This document shows, one piece after another, positions 13,903 through 34,847 of a stretch of DNA of 64,000 bases. The notes beneath the pieces are model-generated. The model saw only the letters and a program-made list of their open reading frames with translations. It was not told the DNA's origin and did not search any database. The stretch spans positions 246,366 to 310,365 of the forward strand of contig JBBCGO010000001.1 of NCBI GenBank assembly GCA_037200925.1, in the 5' to 3' direction. The stretch is from Candidatus Doudnabacteria bacterium. Its GTDB lineage: Bacteria; Patescibacteriota; Doudnabacteria; UBA920; O2-02-FULL-48-8. A program made the position numbers and the translations under genes. Each line of letters opens with the position of its first letter. Positions within the stretch are counted from its first letter, which is position 1.

Positions 13903-16458
13903 TTATTTAATTAAATTAGTTATTGCCAAAAGCATATCATTTTTATTCGCAGGCACGGTTTGTTTTAGATCATATCCATAAGATCTAAATTCTTCCATGG
14001 TTTTAAATCCATAACGTTTCTCATTGTTTACAAGCCAAACGGTCTGACCATCAAAGATCAAGCTTCCATTGGGATGAATCTCGTCAGGATCTGTGATCAA
14101 CCCGCCCAGTTCATATGCGTTTAAATCCGCTGTCAGGACCTGGTTAAATCCGAATCCCAACCCTTTGAACGCTTTTTCCGAGGCAAATCCATACTTTTTG
14201 CCTTTGCTCCCAATCATATAGATCGTTCGATTATCCATTAAATCCAATGCCAAAGTGCCGTCTCTAAGCTTGCTAACTGGTTTCTCTAATATCTTAGCAT
14301 TATCTTGCGGTTTTTTGCTATCGCTTGTCGCAGGAGCCGCGGCTATAATACTTCCACCACCGCTTCCCCCGCCACTGCTCCCAGAAATTGGAATATAGGG
14401 CGCGGTATTAATTGCCTGTGTTAAGACTTGAACGGGATCAACCGAATTGATCGTTGAAAAAATATTTGAATTGTCAACCATAATATTATTATCATCAGAA
14501 TTTTGAGAAACATTAAAACTTATACTACTGCCGAGAACGATGCGGACGTTGTCAAACAAAGTATTGTTTGTAACCTGATCATTGTTGATATCAGAAACAA
14601 TCAAGTCAAAACTGCCATTGGCTGTCCCGGTTCCTTGAATTGTATAAGTCTGGCCTTCGTCTGTGGGCAGAAAAATATAAGCCTCGTCATCAATCACTTC
14701 GTATTGAACACCAGGAATATTATTTTCAATCGTACCGTCACTAAGCGGTCCGCTATGATTGTTTAAAGAATCATAAATCTGCACAGATACCGGACTGCGC
14801 CAATTAAGTTCCTTTCCATTCAAGGGACAGAAGTTCGGATTGGTACTAGTATTGGAACTAAGGGTTTCGTGGCCATCTAGAATTCCCGCGATGAGTTGTT
14901 TTACTCCATCCATACTTGGCAATTTTACATGCTCCGCATCTTTAACATAATATTCGGTACCTGAAGAATAGTCTGCACTGACAAATGGCACGGTACCATC
15001 GCCATTAGAATATTGTATATTTACTATTTTTCTTTTTGAGTCATCAATCGTGAAAAGATCCCTAGTAGATGCCCGTTTGCAACCAACGATATTGAATACC
15101 TTGATATCACCATAGTCCAAGTCTTCTAATTTTTTTGCAAAAAAACTTTGCGCCTGGTTAATTAGGGAAATATTCTTACCTAATTCGAACAAGTAAATAT
15201 TTGTATCGGTATAATCCAATACTTTATTTAACGAAGTGACTTTTATATAACCCTGGTAGCGATTAAAATATTTCTTATTAGGGAGCAATTCATACATTGA
15301 TGGTGAATTCAAGGCGATAGATTTGACCTCGAGTGGATTAATAAAATATGACATTGGTGTACCCAAATCACCAGAGAGTAAGGCGTTTGCTGCTTTAGGC
15401 GCTCCTAAGTGAGGAGTGCCTACAAAAATTAACTTATCAATAGTAGAAGTCCCGAATTGATTAATGTAATCTTCAGTGATTAATCCACCCATACTATGAG
15501 CAATTATATCTATTTTATCAGCTCCGGTTTGTTTTTTAATATCCAATATTTTTTGGTTCAACTCATCACGATCAATATCTAAATCAAGCCGCCAATCGTA
15601 AGGAAAGACAAATAGATTTTGGTCTAAAGTATAGCCATTATTTTCTAGATTTTGAATTAATCCTTCAAAAATTATAGTATGAGTAAAAGCAAAATCATAG
15701 CGTTCAATTATATTACCGCTATTTATACTATTAATAGAATTTCCTTCGTCGTCTAAACTTAAATGATTAGTTAAGAAATTGTGAGGTGAAAAAAAATCGG
15801 CTATCAATTCGGTTGGGTTCATCCAAATTAAACTATCCCCATCATAAAGTTCGCTACCCATGATTCCGGGTATTATCAAAACTGGTCTAAGACCCGTTGG
15901 TTCAGGAGCTGTTCCTGTTGGGTTTTGGACATCATCCACATCCACTACATATGAATAGCTTGAAACTGTTGCGACCGGAAAATTGTCCAGTACCTCAGCC
16001 CAGATGTATTTGACTGATCCACTCGCAAGGACTGGTGTGGCCGGCTCATCATTGAACACATAATTAGCCAGGTCAGTATCATATGAAAAAACATTTTGGC
16101 CGGGGATGACCTCGGGCTGGAAGGCAAATCCCGCGATTAGTGTACAAGTTGCGTCCATAAAATTGATTTTGATATTTGTGGATGCCGTGCTTGGAAATAG
16201 CAAATTTATGCTCAAAGTTATCACTGTCCCATTTTTTGAGGCAAAATGGTTGTTATCCGATCCGTAACTAAAAGCTCTTGTCCCATCTTCTTGGGACATA
16301 TCCGCAACCAAATGAGCCGAAGCCTGCGCCGAATCACAGTCTGTAGTCGGCAAAGACAGGTCAGCCCGGGTTTTTCCGGGTACAAAAAAGACGCTCAAAA
16401 CAAGCGCCGCGACTAGTATTATTCTGAATATCCGTTCTTTACATAAGCCGGAAAGCAT
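13903..16458 (-). CDS. Secreted lipase/esterase-like alpha/beta hydrolase (PGAP1/LCAT-like) with Gly/Ser linker and two C-terminal copies of a shared ~50-aa module
   Basis: 851 aa; signal peptide; IIAHSMGGLI GxSxG nucleophile elbow; GSSGGGSGGGS linker; C-terminal repeats related to C-termini of 19947..22844 and 33309..34553. Confidence 0.6.
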   Translation of the reverse strand: MLSGLCKERIFRIILVAALVLSVFFVPGKTRADLSLPTTDCDSAQASAHLVADMSQEDGTRAFSYGSDNNHFASKNGTVITLSINLLFPSTASTNIKINFMDATCTLIAGFAFQPEVIPGQNVFSYDTDLANYVFNDEPATPVLASGSVKYIWAEVLDNFPVATVSSYSYVVDVDDVQNPTGTAPEPTGLRPVLIIPGIMGSELYDGDSLIWMNPTELIADFFSPHNFLTNHLSLDDEGNSINSINSGNIIERYDFAFTHTIIFEGLIQNLENNGYTLDQNLFVFPYDWRLDLDIDRDELNQKILDIKKQTGADKIDIIAHSMGGLITEDYINQFGTSTIDKLIFVGTPHLGAPKAANALLSGDLGTPMSYFINPLEVKSIALNSPSMYELLPNKKYFNRYQGYIKVTSLNKVLDYTDTNIYLFELGKNISLINQAQSFFAKKLEDLDYGDIKVFNIVGCKRASTRDLFTIDDSKRKIVNIQYSNGDGTVPFVSADYSSGTEYYVKDAEHVKLPSMDGVKQLIAGILDGHETLSSNTSTNPNFCPLNGKELNWRSPVSVQIYDSLNNHSGPLSDGTIENNIPGVQYEVIDDEAYIFLPTDEGQTYTIQGTGTANGSFDLIVSDINNDQVTNNTLFDNVRIVLGSSISFNVSQNSDDNNIMVDNSNIFSTINSVDPVQVLTQAINTAPYIPISGSSGGGSGGGSIIAAAPATSDSKKPQDNAKILEKPVSKLRDGTLALDLMDNRTIYMIGSKGKKYGFASEKAFKGLGFGFNQVLTADLNAYELGGLITDPDEIHPNGSLIFDGQTVWLVNNEKRYGFKTMEEFRSYGYDLKQTVPANKNDMLLAITNLIK

Positions 16459-16530
16459 ATTTAGAACTAATTGGTCTTTTTTACTCTATCAATTGCTTAC
16501 GCTTAAGTCAAGAGGGTTCCTCCAACTATT

Positions 16531-16552
16531 CTCTAATTCGCGCGAATTAGAG
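16531..16552. promoter_or_regulatory. Perfect 22-bp palindrome CTCTAATTCGCGCGAATTAGAG overlapping arsR stop codon (member of ATTCGCGCGAAT repeat family)
   Basis: self-complementary; shares 5' flank CCAACTATTCTC with copies at 16821 and 24554. Confidence 0.6.
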
Positions 16553-18393: not shown

Positions 18394-19842
18394 TTAGATA
18401 ATGCTCGGCAATTCTGCTGAGAATGCGCTTTCTGATGTGGCATCAAATGCCGTCACTGCAAAGTAATACGTCACGTTTGCCGTAAACCCGATCAGAGGAA
18501 GCTGCGTGCCTGTAACTGTCGCGCCTTTGGCTAATGTATCGGGGGTTGTGCCCCAGTACACATTGTATCCGAGCACTATGGCATCCGAGCCATCGGTCTT
18601 CTTTGTCACCGGATCCCACGCCAGTGTCGGTGGAGTGACCTGGACCGTGACATCCGCCGGCGTCGTCCCGGCTAGATTCGTGCAGGTCACGCTGAACGTG
18701 GTCGTGACCCTCGGCGCAATGCTCGCGGTCGTAATGGCGCTGACAAGCGCCGGCCCGCTCCAGTTGGCATTGGCCGGACTGGCCGATAGCGTGCATGTGG
18801 TGGAGTTATTCCCCGGGTTTTCCATCACTGTCGTTGATTCACCCAAACGTATCGCCGTCGGATTGGCTGTGATGGTCGGAGTCGGTGGGATCGGGGGCAC
18901 CACTGTGATCTGAAATGATGTGGTCTGTACCACCCACTGCACTGTCGCAGCAACCACAATGGTATACGTGCCTGCGGGTGTTGTGATCCCGGTTGTCAGG
19001 GTTAAGACCGAAGCGCATGTCGGGCTGCAGACGGGGTTGGCAAACGCTGATGTCATGCCGACCGGCAACCCTGACTGGACGGAAAACGTCACGGGCTGTG
19101 TCGTCCCAAACTGCAAATTCGCCGAGATCGTACTGGTCGCGGCCGGACTGCCGTTTGTGCTGATGCCGTTGTTGGTGAGCGTGAATGACGGGGGCAGAGC
19201 TGGCGGCACAGAAAGAGTGGAGCCAAGCATGGGGCCTTGCTGCGTGCCGTCAGGCAGCTGGATCTTAGCGGATGCGTGATTGAGGTTCGTGCCTGCTTCC
19301 GCCACCGTGTCCATGTACACGAGTTCAAAGTACACGGTCTGGCCGGCGGTGAAATTTATCTGCTGCGGAGTGATCCCGTTGCAGATCGTGACCGGGTTGC
19401 TTGACTGCTCGCAGTACCGCAGCCACTGGTTCACGCTCGGCGCCACCGCATTTGTCATCTGCGCGATCGGGCTTTTACCCGCGAAATTCTGGTCAGCTGT
19501 CGAATAGTAGAGCTTGCCTTTCCCGTTCGACGCCATCCAGAATTTATATTGACCAGTCTCTGGCGCTGTGTACTGGCAGCGCATGCGCGCCACCAACGGC
19601 ACGTAAATGCCGCTGACATTCAGCAGGGCCGCGAAGTTGACAGTATTCTGGACAAGGTTGGGATTGGGATTCCCCAAAAGCCACGGATTGTCCGCGAGTT
19701 GCTGAGGATCGGTTATGGCACCTGAGGCCACATTGTTCCAGGCTTCCCAGATGCACCCTACAGACCCCGGAACCGGCGGCGTTTGTGCGCTCGCCACACG
19801 TGCGACCAATACAAAAACGCACCAGAGCAGCATTCTCTTCAT
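18394..19842 (-). CDS. Secreted carbohydrate-binding-like protein (PA14-like N-terminal domain plus Ig/FN3-like C-terminal domains); anomalously GC-rich
   Basis: 482 aa; signal peptide MKRMLLWCVFVLVARVASA; YTAPETGQYKFWMASNGKGKLYYS PA14-like pattern; C-terminal FN3-like YYFAVTAFD; GC far above window average with many spurious overlapping ORFs on both strands. Confidence 0.5.
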   Translation of the reverse strand: MKRMLLWCVFVLVARVASAQTPPVPGSVGCIWEAWNNVASGAITDPQQLADNPWLLGNPNPNLVQNTVNFAALLNVSGIYVPLVARMRCQYTAPETGQYKFWMASNGKGKLYYSTADQNFAGKSPIAQMTNAVAPSVNQWLRYCEQSSNPVTICNGITPQQINFTAGQTVYFELVYMDTVAEAGTNLNHASAKIQLPDGTQQGPMLGSTLSVPPALPPSFTLTNNGISTNGSPAATSTISANLQFGTTQPVTFSVQSGLPVGMTSAFANPVCSPTCASVLTLTTGITTPAGTYTIVVAATVQWVVQTTSFQITVVPPIPPTPTITANPTAIRLGESTTVMENPGNNSTTCTLSASPANANWSGPALVSAITTASIAPRVTTTFSVTCTNLAGTTPADVTVQVTPPTLAWDPVTKKTDGSDAIVLGYNVYWGTTPDTLAKGATVTGTQLPLIGFTANVTYYFAVTAFDATSESAFSAELPSII

Positions 19843-19946: not shown

Positions 19947-22844
19947 ATGCTCAATTTAAGCAGGTTTTTATACGATACTCAAGGAAAAAACCGCATATTA
20001 AAAATAATCTCGCCGATCGCGGTGATCATCATTTCGGCAGTGCTTGTGCCTCCGATGAGCGCGCATGCCGATACTTTCACATCGCGCTGCACGGCCGCAG
20101 GAGTGGTACTCTGCAGCGGATTTGATTCCGCAGATGACATAGACAGCTTTGTTTCAGGAAATGAGGTCGGGACAACTCTCGGCGTGTTTGACCCCACGAA
20201 CCAGGCATCCGGAACAGGCTCCATGAAATTTACGATCCCGAGCCGCACCGGCGCCAATTCATCCGGCGATTATGAACGCCTGATCAATGAATCAAGCGCC
20301 GGCTACAAAACCGGCTCCGTGTTCTTCGTCCAGTTCCGCCAGCGCTTCTCGCCGGAAATGCTTTCATCTGCCATGGGCGGCAACGGCTGGAAGCAGGTGG
20401 AGATCACCACACCCTTCAGCACTTACGGCGACGCGCCCGGCATCGGGCTTTTTAACCAATCATTCGGCAACATGCCAGTGCTTTACGTCAACGGCGCAAC
20501 CTTCACGCAAACTCCCTCTGACGGCACTGCCGTTTCTTATGTCGCCAACCAGTGGATGACCTTTGCTTTTGAGATCCATGTCGGCGATTGGGGCGCGTTC
20601 AACACGACTGTGAAGGTTTGGGCAGCTCCGGAAAACCAGCCCTTAAAACAGATCTACAATGTGACCAATGCCGCTCCAGGGCAAAACCCCAGCGACCCTG
20701 ATTCCGGGTACAACAAAATAATGTTCGGCCCGAACAACACAGGCAAACTTGCAACAACTGTCCACACGCCGGCCACGACCTGGTATGACGAACTGGTAGT
20801 TTCAAACAACCAAATTGCGGATCCGTTCACACCGGCTGACACCACAGCTCCGGTGCTTGCGGAAGTAACTCCGGTCCCAACTCCGACTAGCGACAATACT
20901 CCTGACTACACTTTCTCTTCCACAGAAGCCGGGACCATTACTTATGGCGGTGATTGTACGTCTGCGACCACGGCTGCGGTGGTAGGCAACAATACTGTAA
21001 CATTCAACACACTTGCAGACGGAGTTCATATGAATTGCACCATCATGGTCACTGATGCTGCTTCAAACCAAAGCCTGCCTTTGAGCGTAAATACTTTTAC
21101 AGTGGACACAACTGTTCCGGATACAACTCCTCCCGTCATCTCGGCCGTCACTTCCACAGCGATAACCCAAACCGGCGTGACGATCAGCTGGATGACGGAT
21201 GAAAATTCAACTTCACAAGTGGATTATGGCCCAACCACGAGCTACGGCTCATCCACGGCATTGGACACATCTTTGGTCACAAGCCACAGCCAGAACATCA
21301 CAGGATTGACTGCCGGGACCATTTACCACTTCCATGTAAAATCAGCCGATGCGGCAAACAATCTTGCCACTTCTGATGATTTTAATTTCACAACTCTTGC
21401 CGCAACTGACACCACAGCTCCGGTGCTTGCGGAAGTAACAGCAGTACCAAGCCCAACCAATGACAATACTCCTGACTACACCTTCTCATCCACAGAAGCG
21501 GGTACTATCACCTACGGTGGTGATTGTTCTTCCGCTACGACATCTGCGGTTGCGGGTAACAACACCGTAACCTTCAACACACTTCCTGACGGAGTTCACT
21601 CAAACTGCACTATCGTGGTCACTGACGCATCAGGAAATGCAAGTACTGCGCTCAATGTCAGCGCCTTTACTGTGAACACGGCCACTCCCGCACCTTCTCC
21701 GCTGACAGTGACCATCAATCAGTCCGCAAAGCAGGCTGACCCAACCAAAAAATCTCCGGTCAGCTTCACAATTATTTTCTCGGAAAAAGTAAAAGGATTC
21801 AAAGCCTCGGATGTTAATTTCTCCGGCACTGCCACAGTGGGCAAGCCTTATCTGTCAGGCTACAGTGCAACTTTCAAGATCTACGTGCCTGTCAAAACCA
21901 GCGGAACTGTCATCGCTACGATTCCCGCGGGAATTGCCACTGACAAGGCCGGCAACAGCAATGCCGCTTCCACTAGCACGGACAATACGATAACTTTTGA
22001 CAACACTCCTCCGGTTATCTCAGCTGTGGCTTCATCTGCCATAACTCTGGACAGCGCCACCATCACCTGGACCACTGATGAGAATTCGGATTCTCAGGTT
22101 GACTATGGCACGACCAACTATTATGGCTTCTCTACAAAATTGGATAAAACCTTGGTGATGAGCCACAGCCAGAACCTGACCGGACTTTTGGCACTCTTAG
22201 ATAAAAATGACCGATATCACATGAGACCACAGCCAATTGCCGGAAAAACCATACACTTCCGGGTCAGGAGTAAAGATGCGCTAGGAAACCTGGCCAAATC
22301 AGCTGACTTCACATTCACCACGGTGCAGCCGGCCAATGGAGCCGCTCCGACTGTGACCATCAACCAGGCTGCGGGACAGGCTGACCCGACAAATCAATCG
22401 CCCATCAGTTTCACTATCGTATTCTCAGAACCTGTGATCGGATTCTCAGCCAAAGATGTGAAGATCTCCGGTGTTGAAGAATACGGGTATGCGTCCCTGT
22501 CCGGCACAGGCCCCACTTATACATTAAGTGTTCCTGTCAAAGACAACGGCACTGTCACTGCCTCGATCCCAGCCAATGTGGCCATTGACTCGGACGGCAA
22601 CGGCAACGTGGCCTCCACCAGTACGGACAATTCCGTAACATTCAAACGCAACAAAATATACGCGGACGGCACTGTCATCTGCGGCTCAGGCCCCACTCTT
22701 TACATGGTTTCAAATCATGGACATGACAAACTTAGCATCCCGTCCATGGCTGTATTCAACAGGCTGAAACTTTCGCTGAAGAATGTGGTCAGAGTGGATG
22801 ACAGAGACCTGTCTGATTACCACGACGGCGGGCAAGCACATTGA
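19947..22844 (+). CDS. Large secreted multi-domain surface protein (Ig-like/FN3-like repeats) with conserved C-terminal module
   Basis: 965 aa; signal peptide; two FN3-like copies (PPVISAVTSTAIT...YHFHVKS and PPVISAVASSAIT...), two Big-like copies (DTTAPVLAEVT...), C-terminal IPSMAVFNRLKLSL...Y.DGG module. Confidence 0.7.
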   Translation: MLNLSRFLYDTQGKNRILKIISPIAVIIISAVLVPPMSAHADTFTSRCTAAGVVLCSGFDSADDIDSFVSGNEVGTTLGVFDPTNQASGTGSMKFTIPSRTGANSSGDYERLINESSAGYKTGSVFFVQFRQRFSPEMLSSAMGGNGWKQVEITTPFSTYGDAPGIGLFNQSFGNMPVLYVNGATFTQTPSDGTAVSYVANQWMTFAFEIHVGDWGAFNTTVKVWAAPENQPLKQIYNVTNAAPGQNPSDPDSGYNKIMFGPNNTGKLATTVHTPATTWYDELVVSNNQIADPFTPADTTAPVLAEVTPVPTPTSDNTPDYTFSSTEAGTITYGGDCTSATTAAVVGNNTVTFNTLADGVHMNCTIMVTDAASNQSLPLSVNTFTVDTTVPDTTPPVISAVTSTAITQTGVTISWMTDENSTSQVDYGPTTSYGSSTALDTSLVTSHSQNITGLTAGTIYHFHVKSADAANNLATSDDFNFTTLAATDTTAPVLAEVTAVPSPTNDNTPDYTFSSTEAGTITYGGDCSSATTSAVAGNNTVTFNTLPDGVHSNCTIVVTDASGNASTALNVSAFTVNTATPAPSPLTVTINQSAKQADPTKKSPVSFTIIFSEKVKGFKASDVNFSGTATVGKPYLSGYSATFKIYVPVKTSGTVIATIPAGIATDKAGNSNAASTSTDNTITFDNTPPVISAVASSAITLDSATITWTTDENSDSQVDYGTTNYYGFSTKLDKTLVMSHSQNLTGLLALLDKNDRYHMRPQPIAGKTIHFRVRSKDALGNLAKSADFTFTTVQPANGAAPTVTINQAAGQADPTNQSPISFTIVFSEPVIGFSAKDVKISGVEEYGYASLSGTGPTYTLSVPVKDNGTVTASIPANVAIDSDGNGNVASTSTDNSVTFKRNKIYADGTVICGSGPTLYMVSNHGHDKLSIPSMAVFNRLKLSLKNVVRVDDRDLSDYHDGGQAH
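20838..21439 (+). repeat. Tandem intragenic duplication (32-mer GACACCACAGCTCCGGTGCTTGCGGAAGTAAC at 20838 and 21408; period 570 bp)
   Basis: identical 32-nt strings 570 bp apart in frame within the surface-protein gene. Confidence 0.8.
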
Positions 22845-24514: not shown

Positions 24515-24553
24515 TCCTGAACTCGTTTCAGGATCTCTTTGTCCTGGGTATTG

Positions 24554-24582: not shown

Positions 24583-24601
24583 TCCTACTCACCCTGAGCT
24601 T

Positions 24602-24841
24602 CTAGATATCAAACTCCTCAGGATCAAAACCCAATTCTTTAGCCGCTTCTAAAAAATCTTTTTTCTGAGGTTTTTTGATCCCTTTTTGCTTCGCATAAGT
24701 CTGGTTCAGATGAACGAGAATCCTGTCTATCTCTTCCTGGCTAAAGCCTCCTTCCATAAGCGAATTTATCCATCCGTGCATGTCTTCATCAGGAACAGAA
24801 GCGCCCACAATTTCACCTCGGTTTTCAAATCGATTTTTCAT
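24602..24841 (-). CDS. Hypothetical protein
   Basis: 79 aa acidic ORF. Confidence 0.3.
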   Translation of the reverse strand: MKNRFENRGEIVGASVPDEDMHGWINSLMEGGFSQEEIDRILVHLNQTYAKQKGIKKPQKKDFLEAAKELGFDPEEFDI

Positions 24842-24847
24842 GAATCC

Positions 24848-25522
24848 TCATTTATTAATAAATAAATGTGCATATTTCTCTCCAAAGTGTCGATACGCAC
24901 ACCATTTACAGTCTGGGTTTTCTGGAGGAACCGGACCTTCCAGCAATTTATTTACATCTTTCATGAATTTCAGAAAGTTTTCTCTTTCCAAATCTACTTC
25001 AACCCATTTGGGTGGAAAGGTTATTATTGCCTGATTTTTTTCAAATCTAACCTGATCTGGATACATGATAACTAACCCTAATTTAGTTATTTGTTTAGAT
25101 TTTCCTTTTTCTGGAAATTCAAATGCGTAATGATAAGCCTGAAGTTGCTTCTGGTATTTAGCGCCCTTTTCTTCATCAGGAGTCGTAATTTTAAAATCGA
25201 TAACTAGGTAAGTTCCATCCTTCTGCCTTACAAGAAGATCATATTTCCCTTTAATATACGCGTTGGTTTTCGGGATCAATTTTGATTCTACATATCCTTC
25301 CTGACTTTCCACTATACCTTCAGGCAAAAGCGGTGAGAGTTCCCGAAGGTTATTTCCGACCAACTTTCCCTGAAGAAGTGCGTTCAAAGTTGAAAAAACA
25401 CCGGGAAATGGCATCGAGGGTCGCTGCATCCCGTGTTTTATTTTAAGATAATAACAACACTTACATTCTTCGTATAAGTATGCAAAATCTGAAGGGCTTA
25501 GTTTGTACTTCTTATTTTCCAT
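24848..25522 (-). CDS. Cas4/RecB-like PD-(D/E)xK nuclease with Fe-S cysteine cluster (no CRISPR context)
   Basis: 224 aa; N-terminal CKCCYY cysteines, LVIDFKIT (D..K catalytic), QLQAYHY (QxxxY), C-terminal CKWCAYRHF CxxC. Confidence 0.55.
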   Translation of the reverse strand: MENKKYKLSPSDFAYLYEECKCCYYLKIKHGMQRPSMPFPGVFSTLNALLQGKLVGNNLRELSPLLPEGIVESQEGYVESKLIPKTNAYIKGKYDLLVRQKDGTYLVIDFKITTPDEEKGAKYQKQLQAYHYAFEFPEKGKSKQITKLGLVIMYPDQVRFEKNQAIITFPPKWVEVDLERENFLKFMKDVNKLLEGPVPPENPDCKWCAYRHFGEKYAHLFINK

Positions 25523-25540
25523 AAACCTATAAATTATCTT

Positions 25541-25556
25541 TTAATTACGTAATTAA
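25541..25556. promoter_or_regulatory. 16-bp perfect palindrome TTAATTACGTAATTAA about 20 bp upstream of the Cas4-like gene (second copy at 31858)
   Basis: self-complementary; located within the likely promoter of 24848..25522. Confidence 0.55.
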
Positions 25557-25667
25557 ATATGTTATTTATAAATCCAGTTCGTCAATATCAATACCCGGAT
25601 CTTCCAAACGGGTTAAAGCTACCTCTGGATCGACGAGTTCATTCGCCGTTCTTTCCCTAAGTCCGTC

Positions 25668-27552
25668 TTACGCAATAGAAACATATTTTAATAATTCTTT
25701 TTTATTATTTTTTTTATCTTTTGGTTTGTATCCTACAAAATTACAAATATCAATAATCTTTACGATAAATTTATCAAATTCTTTTTTACTCATTGTTATA
25801 TTATTGCCAACCAGATTGCTAGTCTGCCATTCAGCAGACACGTTAAGTGGGGCTTGGGGTCTATGACCTTGAATATTAAAAATATCGTGATCTTTTTGTG
25901 TTATCCAGCCAGCACCAACTTCTGATACAGCGCCCCAAGATCTAGCCATATGATCACTAGTAACATAAATAACAAACATTTTTTTATCAGAATAACTATC
26001 GACAAAAAAACTACGAAGATATTCAAAAATACCTATACGGTTAGGGATACGGGAGTCCGCATTGTCCGAATTTGAATAAATAATATCCTCATCCGGAAGT
26101 CCATTAAAAGATAACATCTTATATATAACATCAGACAAGGGTTTGTCTTCTAGAGTCTGACTAATCAAAATTCTTTTTTTCTGCGAATCAACTCTTCTCT
26201 TGATACCAACAATTGGAAGAAATTTATTCATCTCATCCCGGATTATTCTCTGTATGGCTGGAATACTGCCACCAAATCTGCTAGCGATCTTGCTGGTTGC
26301 CCCACCTGACGCTGCCGTTTTGTACTCATCTACTTTTTTTCTTAATTCTTCTTCGTCTTTCTTCTCTCTTTCTTGCTTTTGCTGTTCTTTCTTCTTTTTA
26401 TTAAATTGTACCCAAACATTACGCATGTTAATTATACGAGGCAGTAATTCATCTCTCACATATTTTATTACTTCTATATATCGAAGATCATCTGTCTTAT
26501 ATCCTTGCCGGTTACTTAATGACATGTCTGGTAGCTCCGTGGCTTCGAAAAGGTCAATATGTAATTGTCCAACTATAAACACTTCTTGAAGTTTATTAGC
26601 ACCAACAACAGGTAGAATATTATATTCACCTAGTTTACCATTGGAGAGTATTGAAATAAAATTATCAGGAAAATCGTTCGAGTCTTTCTTTCTGTCTTTT
26701 GTAGTTCTGTAAGCCCCTACCCAACCTTTTATAATTACTTCATATTTTTTATCTTCGCCTTTTCTGTTGACTAAGTTCAACGGGATAGCCACGGCACTGT
26801 CTTTTTTAAGAAGACCACCTTCTATCTCATTATTTTTGCTAAATCCGGAATCAAAGTACTTAGCAAGTCCCTGATACTCTTTGCCAAAAGTAATCAAAGC
26901 ACCAAGGCCTCTAATTATCTCTTTATCAAAATTATCAATAATAATTGTATCTTTATCAGTGATAATATGAATTCTAAAATCTTTACTAACTAATGGAAAA
27001 ATTTTAAGTAAATTGTTGCGTATTGCGGTTACGGTGGCATTTAGTCCATATTGCGGATTTGTCATAACTATTGACGTGCCATTTTTCCGAATATATTTAA
27101 ATTTAATATCTTTATTAGCGATTGCTTCCAATCTATGATCTTCGCCTACGTTTCGAGAAAGAATAAAACCAGATTTTTCATTATCTTTTACAGTCATCAC
27201 TGAAACTTTTTCTGAAACTGAAAGAGCAGCTAACTTGCCAACACCTTTGCGACCCATTCTTTTACGAGTCCCGTCTTCAGTATAGACGTCTTTTTTTGTT
27301 GTGCGAGTCTCAATAGCTACATCAAGGTATTTTTTTTATATCACCATCTTCATAAGACATCCCAATACCATCATCTTCAACAATTATACGATCCTCTTTT
27401 TTTATAATGTATACATTTGAAGCCATCGCATCATATGCGTTTGCAATTAATTCAGCTAAGACATAATAAATATTAGTATAAAGACTCGGTCCCAACAATT
27501 CCAAAACTCTAGGACTTATATTGAGTTTATATTCACGGTTATTATTATTCAT
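25668..27552 (-). pseudogene. MORC-like GHKL (HATPase_c) ATPase, interrupted by -1 frameshift at A8 homopolymer (27331..27338); possible phase-variable gene
   Basis: N-terminal 76-aa ORF has ELIANAYDA (N box) and DDGIGM (G1 box); downstream 529-aa ORF begins with GRKGVGKLA (G2 box); removing one A from the A8 run joins both frames into one ~634-aa protein. Confidence 0.65.
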
Positions 27553-28637
27553 ACAAGCATTCTAATATGCTCTTTAATACTCTTTCCGATAACCGATCCA
27601 AGTCTAACTGGCACAGCATTTCCTATAAACTTAGCAATATTCTTACTTACGATGGATGTTTTCTTATCCACAAACATATAATCCATAGGAAAAGTTTGAA
27701 AGAGGGCGGCCTCTCGCAGACTTATTGCTCTATCTTGGTCCGGATGGCCAAACCGGCCATTTCCAAGACCAATACATTGCGTTGTCATTGTGGGAGCAGG
27801 TTGGTCCCATTTCATCCTACCATATACGGTACTACGATAAGTTTTTCCAGATTCACTCTTATGACACTTAAGTTGCAAATCCTCACTCCAACTTTTTGAA
27901 TTACCTCCGTTGACAGGGGTTGCTTTAATTCTTCGTAAATTAATATCATTTAATTTCCTTGCTCTATGCAATGGATCTTTATTGCTAATATCCCCATCTT
28001 TTAAAGGCTCCAGGTCCGCAATCACATCACGGACAGTGACACGGTTATTTATATGGGTTCTTTTTATTAAAGAAATATTCCCAAATTTAGAAGCTAAAAG
28101 CACAAGTCTTTTTCTCCTCTGCGGGACTCCAAATTCAGAAACATCCACAACCTCGTACTTGTAATTATAATTATTTTGCTTAAGTGTTTTTACAAACTTA
28201 GCAAAAACTGGATACTTTTTCATGTTAGCAAGGCTGCTAACATTTTCCATTGAGACTATATCAGGCTGAGTTTCAGCAATAAGCCTAGCAAATTTATCTA
28301 AAGGCTCAAGCTGTTTTTTAGTTATTTTGTTCAAGTTTAATTTTGAGAATGGCTGACATGGAGCGCATCCTGCAAGTACTCGTATGGTTTGATTTTTTGG
28401 CCCGAACAATTTATCAATCTGCTGAGGAGTTACATTAATAATGTCTTGATCAATAAACTTTGTTTTATTGTTGTATTCATAGCCGAACTTACAGCTACTA
28501 TCATTGTCTATGCCTGCAACAACATCAATGCCTTCTTTAATTAGTCCGTGCGTTAAACCACCAATACCACAGAATAAATCAATAACTTTTATTCTTTTTC
28601 TTTTATTTCTTTTCATAGTTTTATTATTTGCTTTCAA
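27549..28637 (-). CDS. dcm: DNA (cytosine-5)-methyltransferase
   Basis: 362 aa; motif I VIDLFCGIGGLTHG, motif IV PCQPFS, ENV motif; ATGA overlap with downstream ATPase start. Confidence 0.85.
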   Translation of the reverse strand: MKANNKTMKRNKRKRIKVIDLFCGIGGLTHGLIKEGIDVVAGIDNDSSCKFGYEYNNKTKFIDQDIINVTPQQIDKLFGPKNQTIRVLAGCAPCQPFSKLNLNKITKKQLEPLDKFARLIAETQPDIVSMENVSSLANMKKYPVFAKFVKTLKQNNYNYKYEVVDVSEFGVPQRRKRLVLLASKFGNISLIKRTHINNRVTVRDVIADLEPLKDGDISNKDPLHRARKLNDINLRRIKATPVNGGNSKSWSEDLQLKCHKSESGKTYRSTVYGRMKWDQPAPTMTTQCIGLGNGRFGHPDQDRAISLREAALFQTFPMDYMFVDKKTSIVSKNIAKFIGNAVPVRLGSVIGKSIKEHIRMLV

Positions 28638-28718
28638 CTATGGCTATTTCGCCTTCACTCAATCCATACAACTTATATACTTCCTGATCAATTTTACTAC
28701 AACAATCAAGCTGCAGTT

Positions 28719-29813
28719 TTATTTCCCAGATTTAGTTCTATTGTCATCTTTGCACAACATCCGACAATTTTCTGAAATTGTTCTTCCTCCTTCGTGCCAA
28801 GGTTTTATATGATCAGCTTCCATCTCGGAAATATCGAAATGTTTTTTGCAAACAGGGCAAATACCTTTTTGTTTCTCATAAGCTTCGCGCTTCATCTTTT
28901 CTGTAAACGCCCGAATTGAAAGGTATTTTTCTTGCCTCGTCAAAACATACGGATAAATACCAGACTTCTTGGTAACATCTTCGTCTTGCATTAACTCTTT
29001 AATTTCCGTTTCCAATTTAACAGAACTTAGTTTTTTATCTTTGAATTCATTATGCAGCTCGCCCCATTCCACATGAGCCATTTCGCGCCGATAATTTGGA
29101 AATGTCTTTTGCGCCCAGGAAATTACGTCCTGAAAATATTCCCACAACTTGTCAGCGCTTTTGTCTTTCTGATGTTTGCCCATGTAATCTTCAATTTTAT
29201 CATCACTGATCCAGCGGAGTGCCGTTTCCAGATACTCTTGGCGGTTCAATGCTCCACTCACATAGTCATGAGCCAGTAAATACGCCGGCGCGTTGCTCTT
29301 ACTGAAATAACGCTTGGCATCGGTTACCCAAGGCCCTGAATAAATAGCGTTCAACAATTCTTGAGGTGTAAGTTTCTCGCCAGCGGTATTGATGACCTTA
29401 AACCACGCCAGCTTTTCATCATCCGTACCTTCGCAAAAATATACCATGAGCGGATAGTCGCGGATATTCTTTTTCTCTTCTTCCGTCAAGTTATCGAAAT
29501 ACATCTGGTACCCGCGGTTCATAACGTTAAAATCCCCGGCCAAAAAGTTACAGATGCTTACAGTGCGCTGCTGGCCATCAAGGATTTCGAAACTACCACC
29601 ACTGTTTTTCACCCAGTACATCGCGTTTAGAGGAAACCCGCCCATCACCGAATTAATAACCGCGATCTGCTGTTCGGGTCTATAAATAAACTCGCGCTGG
29701 TATTTCGGGCGGATATTCAGACTGCCGCCATACCCAACGACACCCTCCTCTTCAATGTTTTTATACCCGTCAACTATTTTATGTATCGGAATTTGATGTA
29801 GTTCAATTTTCAT
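28719..29813 (-). CDS. DUF262 (ParB-like nuclease domain) plus C-terminal HNH endonuclease (GmrSD-like architecture)
   Basis: 364 aa; DGQQRT motif of DUF262; C-terminal CPVCKK...ADHIKPWHEGGRTISENCRMLCKDDN HNH motif. Confidence 0.7.
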   Translation of the reverse strand: MKIELHQIPIHKIVDGYKNIEEEGVVGYGGSLNIRPKYQREFIYRPEQQIAVINSVMGGFPLNAMYWVKNSGGSFEILDGQQRTVSICNFLAGDFNVMNRGYQMYFDNLTEEEKKNIRDYPLMVYFCEGTDDEKLAWFKVINTAGEKLTPQELLNAIYSGPWVTDAKRYFSKSNAPAYLLAHDYVSGALNRQEYLETALRWISDDKIEDYMGKHQKDKSADKLWEYFQDVISWAQKTFPNYRREMAHVEWGELHNEFKDKKLSSVKLETEIKELMQDEDVTKKSGIYPYVLTRQEKYLSIRAFTEKMKREAYEKQKGICPVCKKHFDISEMEADHIKPWHEGGRTISENCRMLCKDDNRTKSGK

Positions 29814-29846
29814 ATTGGTTAAGTTATTTTATGTTTCATAAACCTA

Positions 29847-30476
29847 TTAAATATTAAAATACCTACAGATAAACCGTTTTAATCTAAAAAAATTAAGACC
29901 TGTTAAAAGCCAAATAAATGGTACAACTTTAGAATTTTTTTCTTTTTCTAATTCTTTCCTGAGACTAAGATATGCTGTACGAGCTTGCCCATCATGCTCT
30001 CCGCCTATTAATTTATGGACTACAACAAGTAAATCTTCAGCTCTCTTTTTTATCTCTGGTTTTATATTGTCCCAAACCTCAGCGTTAGAAAGAAAATTAT
30101 GGTGTAATGCTACTCCTTGATTGAAATTACTTAGTGCCTGCTTAGCAGAAACTAGGGTTTTAATAAGCTCTGGATTAGTAAATAAACTACCGGCAGTAGC
30201 GATTGAATTGTCTATGGCCAAGCTTTCTATTTTAAAAACAATTTTTCTCAAAAGTTCTTTATCCTCCCTTATCTCTTGAGATCTGCTTTCCGGCCAATTC
30301 GTGCTAAGCCAATATTGAACTCCCTCGTCTAGTTCGGCTTGGATAGCATTTAATACACTACTTCTAGTATGCCAAATTCCTAGCCGATAAATAATCCAAG
30401 CAACTATAGCTGTGATAACAACTGATGACCCACTTGGATGCTCGCTAATTGTTGTAAATATTGAATTTATGTCCAT
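29847..30476 (-). CDS. Hypothetical protein with N-terminal TM segment
   Basis: 209 aa; SSVVITAIVAWIIY hydrophobic segment. Confidence 0.35.
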   Translation of the reverse strand: MDINSIFTTISEHPSGSSVVITAIVAWIIYRLGIWHTRSSVLNAIQAELDEGVQYWLSTNWPESRSQEIREDKELLRKIVFKIESLAIDNSIATAGSLFTNPELIKTLVSAKQALSNFNQGVALHHNFLSNAEVWDNIKPEIKKRAEDLLVVVHKLIGGEHDGQARTAYLSLRKELEKEKNSKVVPFIWLLTGLNFFRLKRFICRYFNI

Positions 30477-30518
30477 TGTTTTTCCTTCAACATTGGATTA
30501 AATTTATTTCCAAAAAAA

Positions 30519-31622
30519 TTATTTTTTCAAACGGATTAAAATACGAGGAAATGTATTTTTCAGTCCTGCTGAAGTTTTTAAGACCGGACCAGCATTTAAG
30601 TCACTATAATTTTTTGCATCGATAATTGTATAAACCTTGCTCTTTAAAGCAGGGTCACCAGCTCCTCTTTTAGCCATACCAATAATTTCGAACTGTTCAG
30701 GATTGTACTTATCAAGGAACGTAATCGGAACACCCATGACACTATTGTAATCTTGTGGAATATCTAATTTTTTCGAAACTTCAATAGCATCGTAGTTCTC
30801 GTATTTAGGATATTCTTCGGGATTGTATGTTTTGTAAAAAGTCATTTTCTCATGACGCTTTGTGGTATCAAGGTTTGTAAACCATAAAATACGACCAAAG
30901 CTAAAATACTTTATACCATTCACAACTTTCTTTCTGGATTCTGTATCTATGTCGTATTCTTTGGGGACTTGAAACCATTTTGTCCCGCCATTGTCATAGC
31001 CAAGCCACAATTTATTTTCTTTGATGAGTTTAAAAATTTCTTTATAGGTTATGGCATTCTGGTCCCCTAGAATCAAAAACTTTTTTTTGTGTTCAACAAG
31101 CTGTGCCACGTAGTCACGAAAAAGAGAAAACGGCGGATTGGTGACCACTATATCTGCTTGGTTGAGAAGTTCTATACATTCCTCACTGCGAAAGTCTCCG
31201 CCGTCTTTGAGGGAGGTTGAAACATTTGCATCGTGCCGGAGCAACCATTCGACATCAGAGAGGCCAATAGCGCCATCAGAATTGGAATCTGGAACTTCAT
31301 TAATTTCAATTTTAAACGGCTCTTTGCCTTTCGGTTTTAGGCCTTTGACTTCAAGGAGTGGTAACTGTCCTCCCGCAATTGGCGACTTTGTATAACTGGT
31401 GGTGATTAACTTTTTGAGACCGAGAGCATTAAAATTAGCAGCGAAATATTTAAAAAAATTACTCTCGAACGGATCATCGCAATTGCAATAAATAATCTTA
31501 TCCCGAAACTGTTCTTTGTAATGTTTTAGTTCTTTTTCAATATCAACAAGCTGAGTATAAAACTCGTCTTTCTTAGCTGCGCTTGCTTTGTGTAAGTTGC
31601 TATTTAATGATTTATTTGACAT
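30519..31622 (-). CDS. DNA methyltransferase, N6-adenine/N4-cytosine class (NPPF motif)
   Basis: 367 aa; DIVVTNPPF catalytic motif IV; AT-rich. Confidence 0.6.
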   Translation of the reverse strand: MSNKSLNSNLHKASAAKKDEFYTQLVDIEKELKHYKEQFRDKIIYCNCDDPFESNFFKYFAANFNALGLKKLITTSYTKSPIAGGQLPLLEVKGLKPKGKEPFKIEINEVPDSNSDGAIGLSDVEWLLRHDANVSTSLKDGGDFRSEECIELLNQADIVVTNPPFSLFRDYVAQLVEHKKKFLILGDQNAITYKEIFKLIKENKLWLGYDNGGTKWFQVPKEYDIDTESRKKVVNGIKYFSFGRILWFTNLDTTKRHEKMTFYKTYNPEEYPKYENYDAIEVSKKLDIPQDYNSVMGVPITFLDKYNPEQFEIIGMAKRGAGDPALKSKVYTIIDAKNYSDLNAGPVLKTSAGLKNTFPRILIRLKK

Positions 31623-31623
31623 T

Positions 31624-31800
31624 CTATTTCTTCCAATCCCTGACTATCAAATGTTTCCCTTTTTGTATCACTTTAACTTTCTGTCTTTCCCGCCAGCCGA
31701 GCTTTTCCACCAATTCGATCGGCAAGGTTAAGCCCAAAGACTTCCTGCCCATTCGGGTCAATTTTCTGATATTTTGGTCGCCGTGCTTTCTAACACCCAT
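31624..31800 (-). CDS. AbrB/MazE-fold (swapped-hairpin) small DNA-binding protein, not in ORF track (58 aa)
   Basis: manual translation MGVRKHGDQNIRKLTRMGRKSLGLTLPIELVEKLGWRERQKVKVIQKGKHLIVRDWKK; stop 2 nt before MTase ATG; shorter alternative start at 31752. Confidence 0.45.
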   Translation of the reverse strand: MGVRKHGDQNIRKLTRMGRKSLGLTLPIELVEKLGWRERQKVKVIQKGKHLIVRDWKK

Positions 31801-31857
31801 GTGATTAGCTCTTCGTCTGGATCCCGGATCAAGTCCGGGATGACAGCCAGTATGTAA

Positions 31858-31873
31858 TTAATTACGTAATTAA
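31858..31873. promoter_or_regulatory. Second copy of palindrome TTAATTACGTAATTAA, upstream of the AbrB-like/MTase operon
   Basis: identical 16-mer to 25541..25556; followed by hairpin ATCCCGGA-tcaag-TCCGGGAT. Confidence 0.55.
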
Positions 31874-31911
31874 ATCTTACCTCTATTCTGCCACTTTTTG
31901 CCCGAAAAAGC

Positions 31912-31938
31912 AAAAAGCGGCCTTTCGGCCGCTTTTTG
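31912..31938. terminator. Bidirectional rho-independent terminator
   Basis: GCGGCC-tttc-GGCCGC flanked by A5 and T5. Confidence 0.6.
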
Positions 31939-31948
31939 TACTAGTCTT

Positions 31949-32197
31949 TTAAGCAGGATTGTAATTTAGCACTCGCCAAGTATTATGTTCTTTGATAGCT
32001 TGAATGACTTTTTGATTTTTTCCTTTTACTTTTCCGGCAGAATATCCACTCCAAGTATTAAATGCATCATCGCCCTTTATGGTAAATATGACCAAAGACC
32101 CGTTTGGAATTTTGTTCCAAACTCTCGGATTCTTAGATGCATATTTATCAAACTCAAAAGAAAGCTTGATATTTTTCTGTACAAAAAGTGTATTCAT
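31949..32197 (-). CDS. Hypothetical protein
   Basis: 82 aa; terminator immediately downstream. Confidence 0.4.
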   Translation of the reverse strand: MNTLFVQKNIKLSFEFDKYASKNPRVWNKIPNGSLVIFTIKGDDAFNTWSGYSAGKVKGKNQKVIQAIKEHNTWRVLNYNPA

Positions 32198-32225
32198 AGT
32201 AGTTTTAAATTAATATTTTTTATTT

Positions 32226-32537
32226 CTATTTCGATATTAGATAATTTTCTTTGATTTTTAGAAAATCTCTTTCAATTAATAATTTAGCCTGTATAAAGGC
32301 CTTATTATTATCATCTATGCCTAATGGTACCCAATATTCTCTGTCATGTAAATGATACTTATGCACATGGCCTAAACCATGACAATTATCAATCCTCATT
32401 ATAGTTTTCCATTTTGAATCAATTCTGGCGTAGTATTGAACCACAAATTTAACAATCTTGCCTCTATTCCGGCTAAATTTAATCCTTAATTTATCATCTT
32501 CAGTCAAAAATCTAGTATTATCCACTTCCCTGATCAT
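32226..32537 (-). CDS. Hypothetical protein
   Basis: 103 aa; AT-rich. Confidence 0.35.
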   Translation of the reverse strand: MIREVDNTRFLTEDDKLRIKFSRNRGKIVKFVVQYYARIDSKWKTIMRIDNCHGLGHVHKYHLHDREYWVPLGIDDNNKAFIQAKLLIERDFLKIKENYLISK

Positions 32538-32632
32538 TTTAGTATTTTAGATTGTTTAACAAAAATAGCGGCCTTAAGCCGCGCAAGCTATCAACATAAT
32601 GCTTATTAATTATATTCCTTTTTCCCAAAAAG

Positions 32633-33282: not shown

Positions 33283-33308
33283 ATTATAGGCTTCCTTTTT
33301 TCTTAGTT

Positions 33309-34553
33309 CTAATTTTGAATTCCGCCGTCATCATAACTGCCAAGCTCGCTGTCGGAAAGCTTGACGATCTTGCCCAGGGACAAACCTAACCGGTTAAACA
33401 CGGCCATGGAAGGAATGCCCATTTTAGCGTCGCCTGCAACCAAGTAAACCGTAGCTGCGCTTCCTTTGATCAAAGTCCCGTCCGGGTAGCCCATGATCCG
33501 TCCGACGCTGACAGCCGCGAACTGGTCAGACGAAATAGTCTGGACATCCGAGAACTTTAACCCGCGGGCAGTGAAGATAGTCGCAGTGCTGAACGGTCTT
33601 AGCATCCCGTTGACTACCAGATAAACAGTACCGCTGCCGGCCACTTTCACCACTGAACCGTTTGCGTAGTTGAACATCACACTTGGCGGCGTAGGAGCCG
33701 GGGTCGGTGTCGGAGTCTGATAAACAGGGGTCGGATACATGATATTCGGGGTCGGGTACGGGGTTGGGTATTGTACAGGCGCACCGGGACTTGGCGAAAC
33801 AACTGTGTTTGAATCCAGCGTCACTGCGGTCTGGGCAAGTGCCCGGCCATTGAGAGTTGCGCCGGTGTTGAGCACAATTGCTGATTGATCCAATATATTT
33901 CCGTTGAAAACAGATGTCGTGCCAAGCGTGGTTTGGCCGCCGACAGCCCAAAAAATATTACCGGCCTGGGCCCCGCCGCTTAAAATAACATGTGTTCCGG
34001 AACTCGTGGTGAGAGTTTGCGCTATCTGGAAGATCCAGACATCCGAAGCAGATCCTGCGAGTGTGACATCCGACGGTATGGTCACGCCTGTGCCCCATTT
34101 ATACAATCCCGGAGCAAGCGTCATGCCGCCAATGTTTCCGGCGCCCAATTCCGTGGCAGTGGGCAGTGTCCGGCCCACGGCATCAACATATGCGGTTTGC
34201 ATGTCCATTATCGCAGTGGTCATGTTCGCCGGTGTGGGGTCTGCGTAGCCTGGCGCGTATGCTTTTCCGCTTACCAATGCTGAGGTGGAAAATGCGCCTC
34301 CGGCAGGAAGAGTTAAGGCAAAGCCTGTCAGGGAGCTCGCCGCAGCCGGGCTTACTCCAATGTCCCCGACAATACTCGTGGTTCCAGTGGTAGAGATCCC
34401 TGTTTTTGCCAGGATGGCAAAATTACCCGCAGTTCCGAGGTTGACCATTGCCGGCCCTGCGGCCAAAGCAGTTGCCGAGAAAGCCAACGCCAGACCCGCG
34501 ATAAGACCCACAAACATATTTCTTCTCAAGATATTCCTAAAATTTATTTTCAT
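33309..34553 (-). CDS. Ice-binding-like (DUF3494) secreted protein with Pro/Thr linker and shared C-terminal module
   Basis: LGTAGNFAILAKTGISTTGTTSIVGDIGVSPAAASSLTGF matches DUF3494 N-terminal signature; PTPYPTPNIMYPTPVYQTPTPTPAPTPP linker; C-terminal IPSMAVFNRLGLSL...YDDGG; start moved to ATG 34553 preceding the signal peptide. Confidence 0.7.
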   Translation of the reverse strand: MKINFRNILRRNMFVGLIAGLALAFSATALAAGPAMVNLGTAGNFAILAKTGISTTGTTSIVGDIGVSPAAASSLTGFALTLPAGGAFSTSALVSGKAYAPGYADPTPANMTTAIMDMQTAYVDAVGRTLPTATELGAGNIGGMTLAPGLYKWGTGVTIPSDVTLAGSASDVWIFQIAQTLTTSSGTHVILSGGAQAGNIFWAVGGQTTLGTTSVFNGNILDQSAIVLNTGATLNGRALAQTAVTLDSNTVVSPSPGAPVQYPTPYPTPNIMYPTPVYQTPTPTPAPTPPSVMFNYANGSVVKVAGSGTVYLVVNGMLRPFSTATIFTARGLKFSDVQTISSDQFAAVSVGRIMGYPDGTLIKGSAATVYLVAGDAKMGIPSMAVFNRLGLSLGKIVKLSDSELGSYDDGGIQN

Positions 34554-34847
34554 TTGTTTCTGATTAATTTTTTCTATTATAGATTTAATTATAAAACAGG
34601 TTGAACGTTTAGTCAAGGAAAGTTTTTATGCTACCTTTTGTGCAGACGAAAAGGTAGCACCAAAAGCTGCCGGCGGCTCTCGGCAGCACAGAGGTAGTGA
34701 ATTTAGAGAAAAATTTGCCAGAATTCTTAGCTCGCTTCGGCGTGTTCGCAAGGCCTAATCGGCGTTGCGAACGCTAACCCAGCCTCGCTCGCGTCAAATT
34801 CTGACCAGATTTTTCAAATTGCCGGAAAAACCGAAACCTAACTCGGC

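Follow-up and report, generated by a model that had tools for sequence, protein, structure and literature searches.

What could keep a secreted lipase-like hydrolase, a surface protein and an ice-binding-like protein at the same bacterial cell surface when their functional parts have nothing in common? A 64,000-nucleotide stretch of a Candidatus Doudnabacteria genome (GenBank assembly GCA_037200925.1, contig JBBCGO010000001.1, positions 246,366 to 310,365; hereafter the window) raises this question, as three of its genes, which fall within 21 kb, encode proteins with similar C-terminal tails. We call these genes lip (lipase-like hydrolase), adh (fibronectin type III (fn3)/immunoglobulin (Ig)-like surface protein) and ibp (ice-binding-like protein). 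Their tails hold five copies of one repeat (two in lip, one in adh and two in ibp). Judging from sequence, predicted structure and analogy with known systems, we consider the tails to be probably a non-covalent cell-wall-binding repeat, with avidity that rises with copy number, and we put the probability of this reading at about 0.6. What is new here is the probable wall-binding repeat family, which has no Pfam or NCBIfam model; what is already known is its fold, from the periplasmic repeats of EccB.

One repeat in three secreted proteins

An earlier reading of the window (the sequence-only reading) had claimed that the three proteins have similar C-termini and unrelated N-terminal parts, and both claims hold. 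All of the open reading frames (ORFs) and quoted tail sequences are present, and BLASTP aligns the adh tail to ibp with an E-value of 7e-19 (55% identity across 58 amino acids (aa)), with a second alignment to the upstream ibp copy, ibp_C1 (E 0.005). The N-terminal parts match different Pfam families: LCAT (PF02450) in lip, fn3/Pur_ac_phosph_N and Big_12 in adh, and Ice_binding (PF11999) in ibp. All four repeat copies described in the sequence-only reading were recovered, but a fifth, ibp_C1, had been overlooked, and the label "giant adhesin" given in that reading was overstated for a protein of adh's length.

Two kinds of hidden Markov model (HMM) delimit the copies (Table 1). Leave-one-out HMMs, each built from the other four copies and run against the six-frame translation of the window, recover four copies with E-values from 1.3e-11 to 1.6e-4, and ibp_C1 with only 0.22. 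The family HMM derives from 724 copies of the repeat drawn from the 150 best database matches, one of which (P0054) is the window's own lip. It scores all five copies at 1e-10 to 1e-16, and across the whole window, in any frame, it finds nothing beyond these five below an E-value of 0.5. ibp_C1 and ibp_C2 are also kept together in relatives (P0123 and loci L003-L009), and ibp_C1 forms the same fold unit as its neighbour in a two-repeat AlphaFold2 (AF2) model.

All three proteins open with a basic and then hydrophobic signal-like stretch, as judged by eye from the sequence: MLSGLCKERIFRIILVAALVLSVFFVPGKTRA in lip, MKINFRNILRRNMFVGLIAGLALAFSATALA in ibp and, for the hydrophobic segment of adh, ISPIAVIIISAVLVPPMSAHA. 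The ibp start deserves a comment. The public product begins at the ATG at 34553 (414 aa), which gives a clean signal peptide by eye, and the 435-aa version that begins at the TTG at 34616 (a mechanical ORF) has no public record. An obvious low-complexity linker lies upstream of the repeats in two of the proteins, Pro/Thr-rich in ibp and Gly/Ser-rich in lip. The lip sequence also contains a GHSMGG-type nucleophile elbow. Public annotation leaves the tails blank: lip is named "hypothetical protein" (MEJ0021241.1) and adh "fibronectin type III domain-containing protein" (MEJ0021248.1). The adh product has an exact match in another Candidatus Doudnabacteria assembly (GCA_037975565.1, contig JBBCBH010000057.1).

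As a separate observation, the GC content of the lip gene is 0.388, versus 0.514 and 0.541 in the other two genes that carry the repeat, and lip was probably acquired separately. Three small ORFs follow it (12737-13895), which look like multi-pass membrane proteins by eye.

Table 1. Coordinates of the repeats, their genes and other features of the window.
Feature	Position	Strand	Description and evidence
lip gene	13903..16458	-	ORF, 851 aa; secreted LCAT-type alpha/beta hydrolase; Pfam LCAT PF02450 4e-22, aa 261-426
lip linker	14263..14382	-	aa 693-732, Gly/Ser-rich low-complexity, between body and repeats; GSSGGGSGGGSIIAAAPATSDSKKPQDNAKILEKPVSKLR
lip_C1 repeat	14101..14262	-	aa 733-786; repeat 2 of four-repeat cassette subfamily (read from sequence); leave-one-out HMM 1.6e-4; family HMM 3.6e-12
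lip_C2 repeat	13915..14070	-	aa 797-848; repeat 3 of four-repeat cassette (read from sequence); leave-one-out HMM 3.9e-6; family HMM 1.9e-14
adh gene	19947..22844	+	965 aa; secreted fn3/Ig-like surface protein; Pfam Pur_ac_phosph_N/fn3 (2 stretches), Big_12 (2 stretches)
adh_C repeat	22665..22832	+	aa 907-962; one copy, 3 residues short of C-terminus; leave-one-out HMM 1.4e-10; family HMM 1.3e-10; BLASTP to ibp 7e-19
ibp gene	33309..34553	-	414 aa; secreted ice-binding-like protein (PF11999/DUF3494-type); Pfam Ice_binding 2.5e-76
ibp linker	33672..33797	-	Pro/Thr-rich, between ice-binding-like domain and repeats; SPSPGAPVQYPTPYPTPNIMYPTPVYQTPTPTPAPTPPSVMF
ibp_C1 repeat	33498..33662	-	upstream copy; window-only leave-one-out HMM 0.22; family HMM 6.1e-16
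ibp_C2 repeat	33321..33482	-	terminal copy, closest relative of adh_C; leave-one-out HMM 1.3e-11; family HMM 1.3e-16
Secreted-looking protein	18394-19842	-	482 aa; without repeat; weak PA14 and fn3 signals
Membrane-anchored protein	23590-24132	-	180 aa; without repeat; short collagen-like Gly-X-Y/GANGS stretch
PDDEXK_1	24848-25522		low-GC block
HATPase_c_3-like	25668-27257		low-GC block; 529 aa
C5-methyltransferase-like ORF	27549-28637		low-GC block; DLFCGIGG motif by eye
GmrSD_N+HNH	28719-29813		low-GC block
EcoRI_methylase	30519-31622		low-GC block
DUF5647/DUF7718 pair	31949-32537		low-GC block
Alpha-2-macroglobulin-like protein	38267-43819	-	1850 aa; Big_5, A2M_BRD, A2M, bMG10
Class B penicillin-binding protein	47216-49159		window gene
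MurA-like enzyme	62346-63599		window gene

Three similar tails so close together might be a local artefact, i.e., chance similarity, or the recent duplication of one tail among neighbouring paralogues, and the spacing of the genes would suit that. However, the BLASTP score of adh against ibp speaks against chance, and the copies have diverged deeply: even the closest pair shares 59% of its DNA and 37% of its third-codon positions, and other pairs share 15-35% of the latter. This third-codon divergence rules out a recent paralogous duplication, which the sequence-only reading had named as an outcome that would undo its claim. Thousands of homologues exist in other lineages, and the lip tail belongs to a different subfamily from the adh and ibp tails, a point absent from the sequence-only reading. 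We give a local artefact almost no credence.

A large family without a name

The sequence-only reading had proposed building an HMM from the copies and searching with it. We searched 1.84 billion cluster representatives exhaustively with HMMER, using the five-copy profile, and found a large family, with 4,303 representatives at E<=1e-3, 2,026 at E<=1e-10 and 191 at E<=1e-30. The repeat unit is 48-55 residues long, recurs with a period of about 60 residues and has the consensus DGTLVKGSGGTVYLIENGKKRGFPSAEVFNSLGYKWSNVVTVSDAELA. Among the best 150 matches, arrays consist of 2-16 tandem copies (mode four). Of these 150 proteins, 94 carry the array at the C-terminus, 25 internally and 17 at the N-terminus, and 14 consist of nothing but the array.

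These counts help to narrow the functions that the sequence-only reading had offered, which were anchoring, wall binding or sorting. A sorting or secretion signal of the kind found in LPXTG proteins, type IX secretion C-terminal domains or PEP-CTERM proteins would be recognised and removed by a dedicated machine. The last repeat ends 3 residues before the C-terminus in all three window proteins, and the preponderance of C-terminal arrays in the family is also as such a signal would have it. However, copy number varies widely (2-16 in the best 150, one in adh), and internal and N-terminal arrays together make up 42 of the 150. The tails end in ...DYHDGGQAH, ...YDDGGIQN and ...LAITNLIK, with no hydrophobic helix and no charged terminus. 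The AF2 models predict a stable, well-folded globular domain, and the module also occurs in phage proteins that are made in the cytoplasm and have no signal peptide. Sorting is thus disfavoured by copy number, position and tail ends, and we hold it to be very unlikely, while wall binding gains indirect backing from enzyme fusions and the predicted fold, both described below.

The sequence-only reading did not recognise the module as SLH, LysM, SH3b or CWB2, and neither do the databases: at a threshold as loose as E<=1, Pfam and NCBIfam place no named family on the window tails. Nor is any named wall-anchoring Pfam family matched at E<=0.1 by the pure-repeat proteins P0025, P0026, P0032, P0034 and P0123, and the precomputed Pfam domains in public records include none over the repeats. 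Carriers are mostly named "hypothetical protein", or their names describe the catalytic part only. A word-indexed homologue search with repeat alignments was nearly empty (no matches for one alignment and two for another) because the module is too short for 5-mer seeding. Searches of PDB sequences with the five-copy profile, a 115-repeat profile and the 16-repeat protein P0001 returned noise only, and our literature searches turned up no account of the repeat other than in EccB. CATH-Gene3D/InterPro presumably include superfamilies named after "repeat 1" and "repeat 3" of EccB, which may extend to these proteins.

Two subfamilies are present in the window. The ibp and adh tails resemble those of a secreted protein of about 500 aa that is conserved at loci L003-L009. 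The lip tail is collinear with repeats 2-3 of the four-repeat protein P0026 (BLASTP 44% identity, E 4e-33), and from this alignment we read it as R2 and R3, one half of a conserved cassette of four repeats. The module as a whole is a mobile cassette, and its commonest form in the family is this conserved four-repeat one, in which each of R1-R4 has its own signature (P0016, P0021 and P0026).

The taxonomic census is thin, as most matches are unlabelled metagenomic proteins. A genome scan for the ibp-type tail, which used a four-row alignment of close relatives and reaches near relatives only, found it mostly in Patescibacteria (Saccharibacteria, Doudnabacteria and Buchananbacteria) and in one Chloroflexota genome. 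An eight-repeat SpoIID/LytB protein comes from Actinomycetota. The module also turns up in two metagenome-assembled genomes labelled "uncultured Gammaproteobacteria" (L010 and L016), where a 1073-aa fn3 surface protein and a DD-carboxypeptidase bear it; unless the taxonomic labels or binning are at fault, the family extends to diderms.

Predicted fold and relation to EccB

The sequence-only reading had also suggested comparing an AlphaFold model with known wall-binding modules. When this was done, the nearest structures proved to be the repeats of EccB, and the wall-binding domain of LysIME-EF1, an endolysin, was more distant. The AF2 model of the two-repeat ibp tail (from an alignment of 75 tandem pairs) has a mean predicted local distance difference test score (pLDDT) of 95.6 and a predicted template modelling score (pTM) of 0.79. 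A model of a single repeat (ibp_C2, from 115 aligned repeats) has a pLDDT of 90.9 and the same elements. In both models the predicted unit per repeat is beta-beta-beta-alpha-beta-alpha.

In a Foldseek search of the PDB (350,542 chains), the top 11 matches to the two-repeat model are all EccB5, EccB1 or EccB3 (E 9e-5 to 6.5e-2), and LysIME-EF1 wall-binding-domain chains come next. The single repeat superposes on EccB repeats with a template modelling (TM) score of 0.65-0.73 and a root-mean-square deviation (rmsd) of 2.1-2.8 Å over 52-56 columns, its best superposition in the PDB. As modelled, then, the repeat folds like the EccB periplasmic repeats.

Sequence comparison gives a fainter trace. 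The 16-repeat protein P0001 matches Pfam PF05108 with an E-value of 4e-10 (39 bits, positions 184-249, approximately the R2 region), with no single stretch significant, and 3 of 73 other members match it at E<=0.05. The window proteins have no match to PF05108, and profile and phmmer searches of PDB sequences did not find EccB. Common ancestry with the EccB repeats is probable, not proven.

EccB repeats R1-R4 (PDB 4KK7, 3X3M/N, 5CYU, 6SGY and 7NPS; PF05108 spans the whole of EccB) are of the same size as the repeat described here, at about 50-55 aa. They share its four-stranded sheet and two short helices, and they too occur in multiples, four in EccB and mostly four here (PMC4769845). However, EccB, part of a secretion machine, has its repeats on either side of a central core domain and preceded by a membrane helix at the N-terminus, whereas those described here directly follow one another in tandem, mostly at the C-terminus of enzymes and surface proteins that are probably exported through Sec. 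We rejected the idea that the window proteins are themselves EccB or another type VII secretion component: their bodies are LCAT, fn3/Big_12 and Ice_binding, their repeats are contiguous and terminal, and they have no core domain. None of the type VII secretion families turned up among the scanned window ORFs.

The EccB structure invites a different explanation, namely that the repeats are an assembly or scaffold module. They would pack together or on a partner (an S-layer or other envelope protein), and so oligomerise or stiffen the protein, with no glycan binding. The EccB repeats pack against one another and against the core domain, which gives a rigid and elongated body in the periplasm (PMC4769845), and the LysIME-EF1 wall-binding domain and PlyCB act as tetrameric and octameric rings, respectively (PMC7098653, PMC4769845). 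The most frequent copy number here, four, and the defined mutual orientation of the two repeats in the AF2 model also agree with a scaffold. However, self-assembly accounts neither for the repeated fusion to enzymes that hydrolyse or modify peptidoglycan nor for single-copy tails such as adh_C. LysIME-EF1 also oligomerises and binds the wall together, not as alternatives. We regard a pure scaffold as unlikely.

Phage relatives and endolysin domains

The fold more distantly resembles, in its predicted form, the PlyCB/LysIME-EF1 class of phage wall-binding domains. The LysIME-EF1 domain has a four-stranded sheet with helix caps and assembles into a ring of four. Its binding to cell walls was demonstrated with green fluorescent protein (GFP) and fluorescence-activated cell sorting (FACS), and is almost lost with the R190E substitution (PMC7098653). 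Like the repeat described here, LysIME-EF1 (6IST) and PlyCB (4F87) have a small four-stranded sheet with flanking helices (about 70 aa there), work in multiples (a tetramer and an octamer) and are partnered with peptidoglycan hydrolases. In our family, that partnership is seen in other members, not in the three window proteins. They differ in having no sequence similarity to the repeat, and in that multiplicity is achieved there by separate subunits and here by covalent tandem repeats. The four-repeat cassette parallels both the four repeats of EccB and the tetrameric ring of LysIME-EF1.

In a Foldseek search of BFVD (predicted viral structures), the best matches are small uncharacterised actinophage proteins (TM 0.76-0.83, rmsd 1.5-1.8 Å). 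Predicted phage lysins of the lysozyme, N-acetylmuramoyl-L-alanine amidase, CHAP, M15 and M23 types also have the fold, in an accessory domain (TM 0.51-0.77). By sequence, the ibp tail (aa 4-119) matches positions 2-114 of the 118-position profile phrog_9616 (PHROGs v4) with an E-value of 2e-5, and multi-repeat members match it better (P0025 at 1e-16 and P0001 at 2.8e-86). The lip and adh tails have no match to this profile at E<=0.01. A tblastn search of GenBank phages with P0025 gave nothing at E<=1e-3, and one with P0001 as the query found 98 Streptomyces/Rhodococcus phage genomes at E<=0.05.

The phrog_9616 proteins ("hypothetical proteins" of about 104-134 aa from Streptomyces/Rhodococcus phages) therefore have direct sequence homology to the repeat. 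However, they differ from the window proteins in that they are standalone, have no signal peptide or catalytic partner and are encoded at the end of the tail module. In Streptomyces phage Comrade, for example, gp46 (L018, 5914-6318) contains one clear repeat (1.4e-14), and its gene is at that end of the module, with the gene for a minor tail protein of about 2,000 residues two places before it. The standalone homologue might have been a PlyCB-like partner encoded next to a lysin, but the one genome considered, that of Comrade, gives this idea no support, as there is no lysin within 6 kb. The standalone phage protein may serve in the tail as an accessory for recognition of the host envelope.

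A single, as yet unnamed superfamily of envelope-binding modules, with the repeat as its free-standing form, could unite thousands of secreted enzymes and surface proteins (seen here in Patescibacteria, Actinomycetota and Chloroflexota) with the four periplasmic EccB repeats and with phage lysin accessory domains and tail-region proteins. We offer this tentatively, and consider the odds to be somewhat against it.

Fusion partners and wall context

To see which proteins carry the repeat, we took Pfam domains at E<=1e-5 in the 73 shortest full-length members among the best 150 (first residue M and at least 180 non-repeat residues). Note that the best-150 sample favours many-repeat proteins. The commonest partners are domains that act on peptidoglycan, namely SpoIID (9), Amidase_2 (6), Polysacc_deac_1 (3), Peptidase_M23 (2) and Glucosaminidase (2); the remainder include Ig-like, fn3 and PKD domains, subtilases, CAP, beta-helices and others. 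In genomes that have the ibp-type tail, the repeat is also found on Amidase_2 (seven copies), Peptidase_M23 (two copies, N-terminal) and a Peptidase_S11 DD-carboxypeptidase (three copies). The window itself encodes a class B penicillin-binding protein and a MurA-like enzyme, so the organism makes peptidoglycan.

The wall in question need not be the organism's own. If the repeats were host-targeting adhesins, they would bind glycans of a host's wall or surface and deliver the three proteins to that host, which is a variant of the binding explanation with another target. An attached life on other cells is widely assumed for Patescibacteria, and the source here is a Candidatus Doudnabacteria whose closest tail relatives are nearly all Patescibacteria. 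The related standalone proteins in Streptomyces phages lie in the tail-gene region, where host-envelope recognition is expected, and the payloads (a lipase and an fn3/Ig protein) would suit attack or attachment. However, the family also occurs in an Actinomycetota SpoIID/LytB protein and a Chloroflexota genome, and it is fused to housekeeping-type wall enzymes (SpoIID and DD-carboxypeptidase) that act on a cell's own wall. We judge host targeting to be improbable.

Proposed function: a wall-binding repeat

Our preferred reading, retention on the organism's own wall, would work as follows. Each protein is probably exported through Sec by its N-terminal signal peptide. The flexible linker visible in the sequence (Pro/Thr-rich or Gly/Ser-rich) would set the functional part apart from the C-terminal repeats, and the repeats would bind peptidoglycan or a wall-attached glycopolymer non-covalently. 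Patescibacteria are not known to have an outer membrane, and wall binding would keep all three proteins on the cell surface. Tandem copies would raise avidity.

Candidate contacts are a conserved basic pair, K/R 20-21, in the hairpin between strands 2 and 3, and the aromatic residues Y13, Y34 and W36, which are likewise conserved. At profile positions 20-21, all five window copies have at least one basic residue. A motif reading, made with no structural alignment, suggests that K/R 20-21 corresponds to R190 of LysIME-EF1.

This layout is a familiar one. SLH, LysM, SH3b, CWB2, CW_binding_1, LGFP and PG_binding_1-4 proteins likewise combine a signal peptide, a functional domain, a linker and one or more terminal binding repeats, and the partners of such classical wall-anchoring modules are also amidases, M23 peptidases, glucosaminidases and surface Ig proteins. 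However, the repeat described here has no sequence match to their Pfam models (window proteins, E<=1), and SLH, LysM, SH3b, CWB2 and the like are not known to share its fold.

Several points weigh against wall binding. Most fusion partners, approximately two thirds, are of other kinds than wall enzymes (Ig-like domains, proteases and beta-helices), and the three window proteins are not wall enzymes either. In adh_C and ibp_C2, Y34 and W36 are absent and the sequence reads L-x-L, so the ligand may differ for these copies. When the single repeat is compared with the PDB by Foldseek, the E-values are poor (0.25-1.1), which is to be expected of a domain with 54 residues. The 6IST chains of LysIME-EF1 match our models weakly (TM 0.42-0.49, rmsd about 5 Å, probability 0.23-0.75), and PlyCB (4F87) is not among the matches listed in either PDB structure search. 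The Comrade standalone homologue sits in a tail module, not beside a lysin. For EccB itself, peptidoglycan binding is an idea that rests only on a weak resemblance to PlyCB (PMC4769845, PMC6986878).

Significance

The family is an annotation gap: at least 4,303 protein clusters have the domain, yet neither Pfam nor NCBIfam models it, and "hypothetical protein" is the name given to nearly all carriers. A Pfam-type model would flag thousands of proteins from the candidate phyla radiation (CPR) and Gram-positive bacteria as surface-retained, and would help to outline the surface proteome of organisms that are mostly unculturable. The family also provides a testable handle on the role of the EccB periplasmic repeats in mycobacterial type VII secretion, as the fusion of free-standing relatives to amidases, SpoIID, M23 and DD-carboxypeptidases speaks for contact with the wall. 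For engineering, a compact repeat of about 50 residues, with avidity tunable by copy number, may serve in engineered lysins or surface display. No major concept is altered, because wall-binding repeat modules are a familiar design.

Neighbouring genes

Two secreted-looking proteins flank adh and have no repeat (Table 1), and therefore not all local surface proteins use the module.

Between adh and ibp, a low-GC block spans approximately 24200-32600. Its GC content is 0.35-0.38, versus about 0.50 in the flanks, and it is dense in defence and restriction-modification genes. It looks like an acquired defence island, and the ibp gene lies at its right edge.

The alpha-2-macroglobulin (A2M)-like protein contains a Hint/PT-HINT insert (aa ~1088-1219) between its bait-region and A2M domains, which is unusual inside an A2M protein. 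This insert could be an intein-like insertion or a pretoxin-type HINT domain.

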